The notes beneath the pieces were generated by a model, which ran no database searches, was not told the DNA's origin, and worked only from the letters and a program-made list of their open reading frames with translations. A stretch of 38,410 bases of DNA, from positions 94,052 through 132,461 of the IMG/VR virus record IMGVR_UViG_3300017691_000005, one strand, 5' to 3'. This DNA is from a virus. Its lineage: Duplodnaviria > Heunggongvirae > Uroviricota > Caudoviricetes. A program made the translations under genes and the position numbers. Within the stretch, counting starts at the first letter, position 1, and each line of letters starts with the position of its first letter. Below are positions 13,182 through 14,714 of this stretch, piece after piece.

Positions 13182-13690
13182 CTAGAACCATCCTTGGTGG
13201 GCAAGGGGATACACATGCATTGCCCGAGGCTTTACAGGCCGAACCTGTACCGGGAAAAAGAAGTGACCTATGAATATCCGAGTCACATGAATCTATTATC
13301 AATAGGGCAACACGGGTCGCCTGTCCTATATTATGCGATGAGTAATAGATATATGCCGCGATACGGAACGTAATTCCTCCGTCTTGGAAACCTCACTATA
13401 CAGATGTTTCTAAAGTCTTTGTTAGGCTTTAGTTTGCCTTCAACCAGATTAAGTCAAAAAATTAAATCTATTATTTTAAAGTTGATATTTCAGTAAAGAC
13501 ATTGACTCTAATAAAACATACTTATAAGGCTATAAATGAATTTTATTGTAGTTCTCAAATAGTTTCTAAAAATCTCATTGATTTCAAAAATCTCACTAGA
13601 AAACTAAACAGTGTAAAAATCTCACTCCATCGTAACCTGTTCGTTACATACAGGGCTAAAGGTCTCTCTCCTAGGGACGATAAGTAATGC

Positions 13691-14104
13691 ATGAACAACA
13701 CTACTGAGCCAGTCACCGCAACGATGATGAAGGAGATGATGAACGGCACTAATGAGACTGCTCTTGTGCGCTATCCTGACGGTTCTCTGGGTGTTATTCG
13801 TCATCTTTCTCTTGAACTTCCTGATATCCCCGATGATGTAGAGGTGCTTCGTTACCCTGCAAAGCCGTGGGCGGGTGATCTCATTAAGGCCGCTCGTGAG
13901 GTGGCTCGTAAGGACGGAAAGTCTGAGCATCTTGCAACGCTTAAGAAGAAGGCTATTGAGTGGGCTAATGATGAGATTAAGGAGGATGAGAAGCGCATGG
14001 GTTTTCGGATTCCTCCGGATATGATGGGGGCTCGCTCTCTCAGCCGGACGGAAATGCGAATCTGGATGGAGATTATCGAGCGCCTAATTCCTCTGATGCC
14101 GTAA
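13691..14104 (+). CDS. hypothetical protein with candidate -1 frameshift extension to 14451
   Basis: 137-aa ORF; slippery G GGT TTT at 13999-14005. Confidence 0.75.
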   Translation: MNNTTEPVTATMMKEMMNGTNETALVRYPDGSLGVIRHLSLELPDIPDDVEVLRYPAKPWAGDLIKAAREVARKDGKSEHLATLKKKAIEWANDEIKEDEKRMGFRIPPDMMGARSLSRTEMRIWMEIIERLIPLMP

Positions 14105-14280
14105 AGCCTAAGGTCACTTACCGCCGGTCTCCTAATGGAAGATATGACGGTAGTGAATCAGATAGAGATGTCAAGCCTACTCAGGTAATCAATAAGCCTG
14201 CACGAACTAAGGTTTTACCACCACCACAATCCCCCACTATTTCTGAGTCCATCGTAAATAACAACCCTAGGAGACCTACT

Positions 14281-14451
14281 GTGGCTACTTCCGCTACTGC
14301 CCTTGACAAGTCCGCTATGCTGAATGTTTTCAAGGTGCTTGCGTCTTACACTGTTCCCGGTTACGCGCTTTACCTTATCGCTCGATTCTTTGTTTACTTC
14401 CCGCCGAGTTGGTCGGCTGCTGCTGATTTTCTTGGTTTCAATGTTCGATGA
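14281..14451 (+). CDS. small membrane protein, also the C-terminus of the putative frameshift product
   Basis: AGGAG RBS, 7 nt, then GTG; 56 aa with a hydrophobic segment. Confidence 0.65.
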   Translation: MATSATALDKSAMLNVFKVLASYTVPGYALYLIARFFVYFPPSWSAAADFLGFNVR

Positions 14452-14498
14452 TTGATGATCGTAAGGTATGAGACACAATCTCTGACTTACACACATTC

Positions 14499-14531
14499 AC
14501 CCTCACTGACACAATCGGTGGGGGTTTTTTG
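14499..14531 (+). terminator. intrinsic terminator
   Basis: 11-bp stem with GU pairs followed by TTTTTT. Confidence 0.7.
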
Positions 14532-14714
14532 TGTTTTCAAAATTGAAATAAAAAATATTTTGAGAAAAAATCCATGTGGTTTTTGCTTCTATCGTAAAGG
14601 CCGGGGGCCCTGTGCATTTTGGCCGCCATCGTAAAGGGGTGTTTCCCCATGATCAACAACTCGGTTGCCCGAGGCAACCATTTCCATGATCGTTGATCTT
14701 GAAAAGATGATCAT

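Follow-up and report, generated by a model that had tools for sequence, protein, structure and literature searches.

A probable −1 ribosomal frameshift conserved in a family of small phage gene pairs

The window analyzed here is a stretch of 38,410 nucleotides (nt) that forms the final 38 kb (positions 94,052 to 132,461) of the 132,461-bp virus record IMGVR_UViG_3300017691_000005 from IMG/VR, which belongs to the Caudoviricetes. It contains two small genes, here called A and B, that lie on the + strand in different reading frames and are probably joined by a −1 ribosomal frameshift. Gene A (P0001; 13691..14104) is an open reading frame (ORF) of 137 amino acids that defines the 0 frame and ends at TAA 14102-14104. 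Gene B (14281..14451) is in the −1 frame relative to A and encodes a hydrophobic protein of 56 amino acids with a conserved PG motif; it starts at a GTG codon placed 7 nt after a Shine-Dalgarno (SD) sequence, AGGAG (14269..14273). Between the two genes is a start-less gap of 176 nt (14105..14280), in which only the −1 frame is coding and which includes a conserved linker motif, VTYRRSPNGRYDGS. Within the 3′ part of A, an X_XXY_YYZ heptamer, G_GGT_TTT (13999..14005; codons ATG GGT TTT, Gly104-Phe105), lies in the 0 frame and is the proposed slip site. It is preceded by an internal SD-like sequence, AAGGAGG (13979..13985), and followed by a predicted hairpin (14010..14053). An intrinsic terminator with an 11-bp stem and a T run (14499..14535) closes the two-gene unit.

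The initial annotation of this DNA had proposed a −1 shift at this heptamer, with three products. The heptamer is present in frame at the coordinates given there, and the product lengths of 137, 253 (105 + 148), and 56 amino acids are correct. It had also described a −1 frame without stops from 13990 to TGA 14449-14451 and without an ATG, GTG, or TTG in the −1 ORF before GTG 14281, and both descriptions hold for the window. The −1-frame part of the proposed 253-amino-acid transframe protein (14005..14451; 148 codons plus TGA) consists of a disordered linker rich in Ser, Asp, Pro, and Asn followed by a C-terminal hydrophobic helix, and its C terminus has the same sequence as gene B. An AlphaFold2 (AF2) model of this part, of low confidence, left residues 1 to 100 disordered and predicted helices at residues 102 to 130 (29 residues) and 134 to 142.

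The AF2 model of gene A had a predicted local distance difference test score (pLDDT) of 81.8 and showed a soluble alpha/beta domain at residues 1 to 103, of which residues 81 to 103 form a helix, a disordered stretch at 105 to 113, and a C-terminal helix at 119 to 135. In this model the slip site falls at the exact border between the folded domain, which ends in helix 81-103, and the disordered stretch. Homologs of A recovered by an exhaustive HMMER search were 138 to 153 amino acids long and aligned with it from end to end, including the tail; P0003, which is 47% identical to A, has the same tail, DMMGxRSLSRTEMRxW..LIPLMP. Because the 0-frame tail is conserved in the homologs, it must be real, and the assembly indel against which the initial annotation had cautioned is excluded. 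Two long proteins that were also matched by A, P0004 (with TIL repeats) and P0011, look like spurious local matches. Neither A nor the −1 product was assigned to a Pfam or PHROGs family, and the label "non-structural" that the initial annotation gave to the gene is not established. The locus had no match in Rfam, Foldseek searches against PDB and BFVD returned nothing at an E value of ≤1e-3, and the protein atlas gave no usable match. Searches of a collection of cultured phages at the DNA and protein levels, using the locus, A, the −1 product, and two distant homologs, found no relative, nor did scans of viral contigs with A, the −1 product, and their alignment. A 16-nt DNA pattern search of viral contigs returned six loci, all of which proved by tblastn to be chance matches.

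Genomic context was retrieved for eight further lineages (L002 = L007 = L008, L006, L018, L019, L003/L004, L020, L021/L022, and L005); L002, L007, and L008 are the same sequence recovered in three independent datasets. In all of these lineages but L005, a small gene was found in the −1 frame of A, and the intervening DNA was open in that frame. Together with the window, this gives eight lineages that have B in the −1 frame (the window, L007, L006, L018, L019, L003, L020, and L021), to which the counts below refer. The small gene encodes a hydrophobic protein homologous to the 56-amino-acid product of the window, as seen in an alignment with seven relatives. The relatives that keep the arrangement have 30 to 47% identity and span 49 to 76% guanine-plus-cytosine (GC) content. 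The gap lengths in the eight lineages were 176, 161, 164, 125, 128, 41, 95, and 92 nt, all of which are 2 mod 3. The initial annotation had named stops in the −1 frame of relatives as evidence that would speak against a frameshift; there were none between the slip site and B in any relative that has B, and both the slip motif and the −1 frame were kept in the eight lineages. L021 resembled the window in having no ATG, GTG, or TTG in the −1 ORF before the start of B. L005 serves as a natural control, in which the small gene after the homolog of A is in the 0 frame and unrelated to B (hhalign probability of 0.1) and there is neither a C_CCT at the site nor an outstanding hairpin.

The −1 frame of the window contains 19 stops in the 104 codons 5′ of the slip site and none after it. 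Coding potential was scored using a codon-usage log-odds model trained on the long ORFs of the phage. In the −1 frame the gap scored +0.40 bit per codon, the overlap 3′ of the heptamer +0.41, and the small ORF +0.58, and the 0 frame fell to about −0.19 bit per codon 3′ of the heptamer. A score of 0.40 was reached by only 2% of stop-free off-frame windows, and one-quarter of the real in-frame windows scored lower. The best frame-switch point under this model could lie anywhere from 13991 to about 14045, a range that includes the heptamer and does not pinpoint it. Among three low-GC lineages, synonymous divergence in the gap was near saturation (pS of ~0.6), and the ratio of nonsynonymous to synonymous divergence (pN/pS) was 0.27 to 0.45 in the −1 frame versus 0.75 to 4.8 in the other two frames. 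Indels in the gap among these lineages were multiples of 3 without exception. By our own count, the first 22 gap codons of the window and L007 differ by 9 synonymous and 0 replacement changes, and a gap motif, G[RL][YF]xGS, was recognizable also in the high-GC relatives. The pN/pS values, the multiple-of-3 indels, and the motif common to the high-GC relatives indicate that purifying selection acts on the gap in the −1 frame and that the gap is translated in this frame. In the overlap, the probability that the −1 frame would be free of stops was 0.04, 0.09, and 0.10 in the three low-GC lineages, as estimated by synonymous resampling for the same A protein with the codon usage of the phage.

A slip motif was present at the same aligned codon, ~33 to 45 codons before the stop of A, in all eight lineages. 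It is G_GGT_TTT in the window, C_CCT_TTC in L007, T_TTC_CCT in L018, and C_CCT in L006, L003, L019, L020, and L021. The CCT at the slip site is the sole CCT proline codon of the gene in L002, L003, L019, L020, and L021, and the occurrence of a rare codon at the same place in proteins that are less than 50% identical points to selection on the nucleotides. The heptamer by itself is less telling. We estimated the chance of an in-frame X_XXY_YYZ somewhere in 38 codons at ~15%, and the 211 candidate genes of the genome contain 108 in-frame heptamers, of which 5 have −1 extensions that reach at least 90 codons, mostly through an overlapping next gene. The bare pattern is therefore not rare, and the finding is raised above chance by the gap's coding signal and by comparison with the relatives. 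In Escherichia coli reporters, heptamers of the form H_HH.U_UU.Y rank among the best shifters, C_CCU_UUC shifts with high efficiency, and the six shift-prone tetramers include C_CC.U (PMC4066793). Three reporter set-ups, which by our own interpretation of the table columns correspond to no stimulator, the IS911 stimulators, and the IS3 pseudoknot, gave shifting in E. coli of 0.065%, 0.33%, and 3.8% for GGGUUUU (PMC4066793 supplement) and of 0.19%, 1.4%, and 23% for CCCUUUC (PMC4066793).

The sequence that follows the slip site is predicted to fold into a hairpin. The stem that the initial annotation had drawn between TCCGG 14014-14018 and CCGGA 14044-14048, together with its inner stem, is the predicted minimum-energy fold, which an outer stem (UUCC/GGAA) extends to 14010-14053 around the core stem (UCCGG/CCGGA) and the inner stem-loop. 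The heptamer is separated from the outer stem by 4 nt and from the core stem by 8 nt. The window hairpin is within the most stable 2% of the 50-nt windows of its own gene, and in all eight lineages the 50-nt stretch starting 1 to 9 nt 3′ of the motif ranked in the top 0 to 7% of the gene's 50-nt windows by stability. In L007 the hairpin had a z score of −3.3 to −4.3; it covers the same 47 nt as that of the window, of which 11 bases differ. These two hairpins are unfit for a strict test of base-pair covariation, as their core helices are one register apart. On the 5′ side, AAGGAGG lies 13 nt upstream of the heptamer. The coding sequence of the genome is depleted in SD-like motifs (8 occurrences of AAGGAGG versus 15 expected and 15 of AGGAGG versus 37), and the presence of AAGGAGG here is therefore somewhat unusual. 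The 5′ arm of the hairpin contains CCUCC (14012-14016), the complement of the GGAGG in this motif (13981-13985). A 141-nt alternative fold that would pair AAGGAGG with CCUCC 14012-14016 and thereby sequester the SD-like motif and the heptamer was rejected, since it scored no better than shuffled sequences (z = −0.3).

Gene B also has a start of its own. AGGAG-N7 followed by GTG or ATG was present in all eight lineages, which argues that B would also be made alone. The best 19-residue Kyte-Doolittle mean of B is 1.34 in the window and 1.27 to 2.19 across the family. The initial annotation had called the tail of the transframe protein a membrane anchor; the hydrophobic segment is there, whereas the anchoring was read from hydropathy, and insertion of the tail into a membrane is plausible. 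Directly 3′ of B is a five-codon mini-ORF (ATG AGA CAC AAT CTC TGA; 14468-14485), which is conserved between the window and both L007 and L006. The 9-mer GACACAATC occurs at 14472-14480 and again at 14507-14515, where it lies in the loop of the terminator, and this repeat is also found in L006.

The comparative data best support the three-product model of the initial annotation, since both frames are conserved, the gap is under selection, the motif and the hairpin are co-located, and the start of B is conserved in the eight lineages. A and B would form one small transcription unit giving three proteins. Most ribosomes would read A in the 0 frame to TAA 14102-14104 and release the soluble 137-amino-acid protein, whose last 33 residues would contribute the conserved helix. 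A minority would pause at G_GGU_UUU, held by the hairpin at 14010-14053, and the 3′ end of 16S ribosomal RNA might pair with AAGGAGG 13 nt upstream and add to the pause. The Gly and Phe transfer RNAs would then re-pair one base back, and reading would go on in the −1 frame through the disordered linker of ~100 residues into the frame of B. The resulting fusion of 253 amino acids, in which KRMGF would be followed at the junction by SDSSGY (junction peptide MGFSDSSGYDGG), would carry the domain of A minus its C-terminal helix, tethered to the hydrophobic C terminus of B, and B would also be made alone from AGGAG-N7-GTG. The comparisons show that selection acts on both frames and on the linker and that family members retain the slip motif, the hairpin, and the −1 relation; judged by its sequence, the signal is a standard −1 frameshift signal of the bacterial type. 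That ribosomes slip here, and how often, we infer from these features, and the purpose of the arrangement would be to hold tethered A at a fixed low level relative to the free forms of A and B. Overall, we consider it probable that a conserved −1 frameshift yields the A-linker-B fusion.

A number of observations weigh against this conclusion. The overlap shows no amino acid conservation in the −1 frame (pN > pS) and no reduction of 0-frame synonymous divergence (0.57 versus 0.63), so that the avoidance of stops is the sole constraint visible there; for the high-GC relatives, the −1 frame would be expected to be open in any case (P = 0.79 to 0.90). The eight lineages make up about three clades and are not fully independent. 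The window hairpin, at −19 to −21 kcal/mol, had a z score of only −1.2 to −1.6 against dinucleotide shuffles, which is not significant. The SD-like stimulator proposed by the initial annotation is present in the window but is not conserved: L007 has GGGAGG only 4 nt upstream of its motif and L006 has none, and AAGGAGG may be at most a lineage-specific enhancer. In E. coli, G_GGU_UUU is only a moderate shifter, with a top reported value of 3.8%, and tetramer sites gave 0.26 to 5.6% even with a strong pseudoknot (PMC4066793). Those rates may not hold for the likely host, an actinobacterium. Finally, four of the lineages have a GTG (L007, L003, and L019) or a TTG (L006) in the −1 frame inside the overlap.

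These codons are the basis of a different explanation, which we regard as unlikely, in which there is no frameshift and an independent gene, the −1 ORF, overlaps A and starts at an NTG lying over a conserved Trp codon of A. It would give a protein of ~129 amino acids, composed of the linker and the hydrophobic tail, beside A and the 56-amino-acid B. The GTG of L007 and the TTG of L006 are at exactly this position and were used by gene callers (P0013, 128 amino acids, and P0012, 125 amino acids), and the GTG codons of L003 and L019 are at the equivalent Trp. A start there would explain the coding signal of the gap and the preserved frame equally well, and it fits the want of amino acid conservation in the −1 frame of the overlap. 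In the window, however, the codon is CTG (14062..14064), a poor start and the sole near-cognate candidate in the −1 frame before 14281. No SD-like sequence is found at the usual distance from the NTG in the three low-GC lineages, in contrast to the AGGAG-N7 of B in all eight. The presence of an NTG is itself no evidence of selection for a start, because it is forced by the 0-frame Trp codon, TGG. The Trp is missing from L020 and L021, and in L021 none of the three codons ATG, GTG, and TTG occurs in the −1 ORF before B. An NTG start also leaves unexplained the C_CCT or heptamer with its choice of a single CCT, the hairpin, and the stop-free stretch from the motif to the NTG, for which the probability was 0.11 to 0.17 per lineage.

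It is very unlikely, in our estimation, that A (137 amino acids) and B (56 amino acids) are simply two ordinary genes, with a 176-nt spacer that is untranslated and open by chance and with a coincidental heptamer, SD-like motif, and hairpin. Such an explanation can draw on the five occurrences in this genome of a heptamer with a long −1 ORF, mostly through adjacent genes, on a window hairpin that does not differ significantly from shuffles, and on the good start that B has of its own. It does not account for the coding-type codon usage of the spacer in the −1 frame, the confinement of pN/pS values of 0.27 to 0.45 to that frame, the 9 synonymous and 0 replacement differences from L007 in the first 22 spacer codons, the multiple-of-3 indels, or the eight gap lengths that are all 2 mod 3.

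That the two frames are truly a single gene of 253 amino acids, split by a recent frameshift mutation or by an indel from assembly or sequencing, is hardly credible: this is a metagenome-derived virus contig with short homopolymers (GGG, TTTT, and GGGGG) in the switch region, but homologs with the same end point strongly conserve the 0-frame tail past the switch, the two-frame layout recurs in seven other lineages, one of them in three independent datasets, no single-frame fused form was found among proteins of 84 to 268 amino acids, and a representative search with A and no length filter gave only relatives of 138 to 153 amino acids plus the two long local matches. Transcriptional slippage was ruled out, as the longest runs are only T4 and G5, and so was termination-reinitiation at TAA 14102, which has no −1-frame start codon nearby.

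The proposed frameshift can be compared with several known systems. In E. coli dnaX, an internal SD ~10 nt upstream, a heptamer, and a 3′ stem-loop direct a shift that truncates the protein, as a stop follows soon after. The window has the same three-part signal as this tau/gamma system; the shift in A/B differs in extending the protein, the SD is not conserved among the A/B relatives, and the proteins are unrelated. In gene 10A/10B of phages T7 and T3, a −1 shift on a site of the G_GU.U_UU.C type gives a C-terminally extended minor form (PMC5009743). That case shares with A/B a similar type of −1 site, bacterial ribosomes, and an extended minor form, whereas the gene 10 product is a capsid protein, its stimulator is distant, and no downstream gene is separately expressed.

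In phage lambda, a conserved −1 slip gives gpG and gpGT, a short abundant form and a rarer C-terminally extended form that have the N-terminal domain in common, and the fixed ratio of the two is the point (PMC5009743). The A/B locus is similar in that the proposed −1 slip is conserved, probably occurs at a low level, and is placed toward the 3′ end of a small phage gene, with a similar ratio-setting logic. It differs in that it is not upstream of a tape measure gene and has no sequence or fold similarity to G/GT, in that its extension ends in a hydrophobic segment, and in that the downstream part would also be expressed alone. A separate candidate of the tail chaperone kind lies outside the window, where C_CCA_AAA occurs 15 codons before the stop of a 117-amino-acid gene (G000:C1 20538-20891; L023 139-492). 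It is followed by a −1 ORF of 122 codons (L023 447-815) directly upstream of an ORF of 2044 amino acids, and PHROGs returned only families of unknown function; by position, this gene pair is probably the usual tail assembly chaperone frameshift. At G000:C1 48726-49496, also outside the window, an in-frame C_CCA_AAG lies 9 codons before a stop and has a −1 extension of 90 codons.

There is also a likeness in layout to the IS3 family of insertion sequences (IS911 and IS3), in which two consecutive ORFs, the second in the −1 frame, carry a slip motif near the end of the first and a 3′ stem-loop, and in which there are three possible products: OrfA, an OrfAB fusion, and OrfB from its own start. 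IS911 has in addition an SD-like stimulator upstream, and the family uses tetramer as well as heptamer motifs (PMC4066793). The A/B locus resembles this layout but is not a member of the family, because it has no transposase. Searches of Pfam and PHROGs found no transposase or DNA-binding domains, there are no inverted repeats, and there was no structural match at an E value of ≤1e-3. The downstream part is instead a disordered linker with a hydrophobic tail, within a phage cassette that has its own terminator, and the motifs are G_GGU_UUU or C_CCU(_UUC) rather than A_AAA_AAG.

The genome in which the window lies has a GC content of ~43% and also encodes a ribonucleotide reductase, a DnaE-like polymerase, an rIIA-like protein, and a head protease. 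Its host is probably an actinobacterium despite this GC content, because the polymerase, at 45% identity, resembles those of Streptomyces phages of ~131 to 134 kb such as Bmoc and Peebs. The locus sits among small genes as a unit closed by its own terminator, and a check for repeated cassette boundaries found no meaningful recurrence elsewhere in the genome of 12-mers from the locus flanks. A noncoding leader of ~95 nt lies 5′ of gene A (window 13600-13690; L008 2255-2357), and by eye it is much better conserved between the window and L008/L002 than is the protein (47% identity). It holds the inverted repeat GTAAC-N5-GTTAC and may be a promoter, operator, or 5′ untranslated element of the cassette. 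The module is also mosaic: gene A of the window is closer to L007 (47% identity) than to L006 (36%), whereas its gene B is near-identical to that of L006 (pN of 0.056) and unlike that of L007 (pN of 0.52), which suggests recombination within the linker. In L003, L004, L020, and L021, the A/B module stands beside portal genes and probable terminase genes on contigs of 16.4 to 17.0 kb with 72 to 76% GC, and these high-GC contigs of 16.5 to 17 kb may be complete small phage genomes.

What is described here is probably a new frameshift-using phage gene family with a known mechanism. To our knowledge, the conserved frameshifts of tailed phages are almost all in structural or assembly genes, namely, those for tail chaperones, capsid decoration, and gene 10 of T7. 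If true, the present case would be a family with a different logic, in which the slip would replace the C-terminal helix with a long tether plus a hydrophobic tail. It also bears on annotation: gene callers treat the 176 nt between A and B as "intergenic" or, in the relatives, choose arbitrary starts (products of 125 to 128 amino acids), and the family is therefore systematically misannotated. For recoding biology, the family would offer a natural series of slip sites at one homologous position across 49 to 76% GC (G_GGU_UUU, C_CCU_UUC, U_UUC_CCU, and bare C_CCU), among them a case for tetramer-type shifting in high-GC hosts, where CCU is a rare codon. We see about equal grounds for and against the widest reading of these data, in which the A/B locus is a recoding module of ancient origin, present throughout its family in actinobacteriophage-like viruses. 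It would then be the first case of a conserved −1 frameshift in tailed phages that is in neither a tail chaperone gene nor a capsid gene. Under this reading, a minimal C_CCU (with a full heptamer in some lineages) and a hairpin would set the ratio of three products, namely, the free forms of a soluble protein and of a small membrane protein and a fusion of both that is tethered to the membrane, and in the high-GC members the gene's only CCU proline codon would mark the site.

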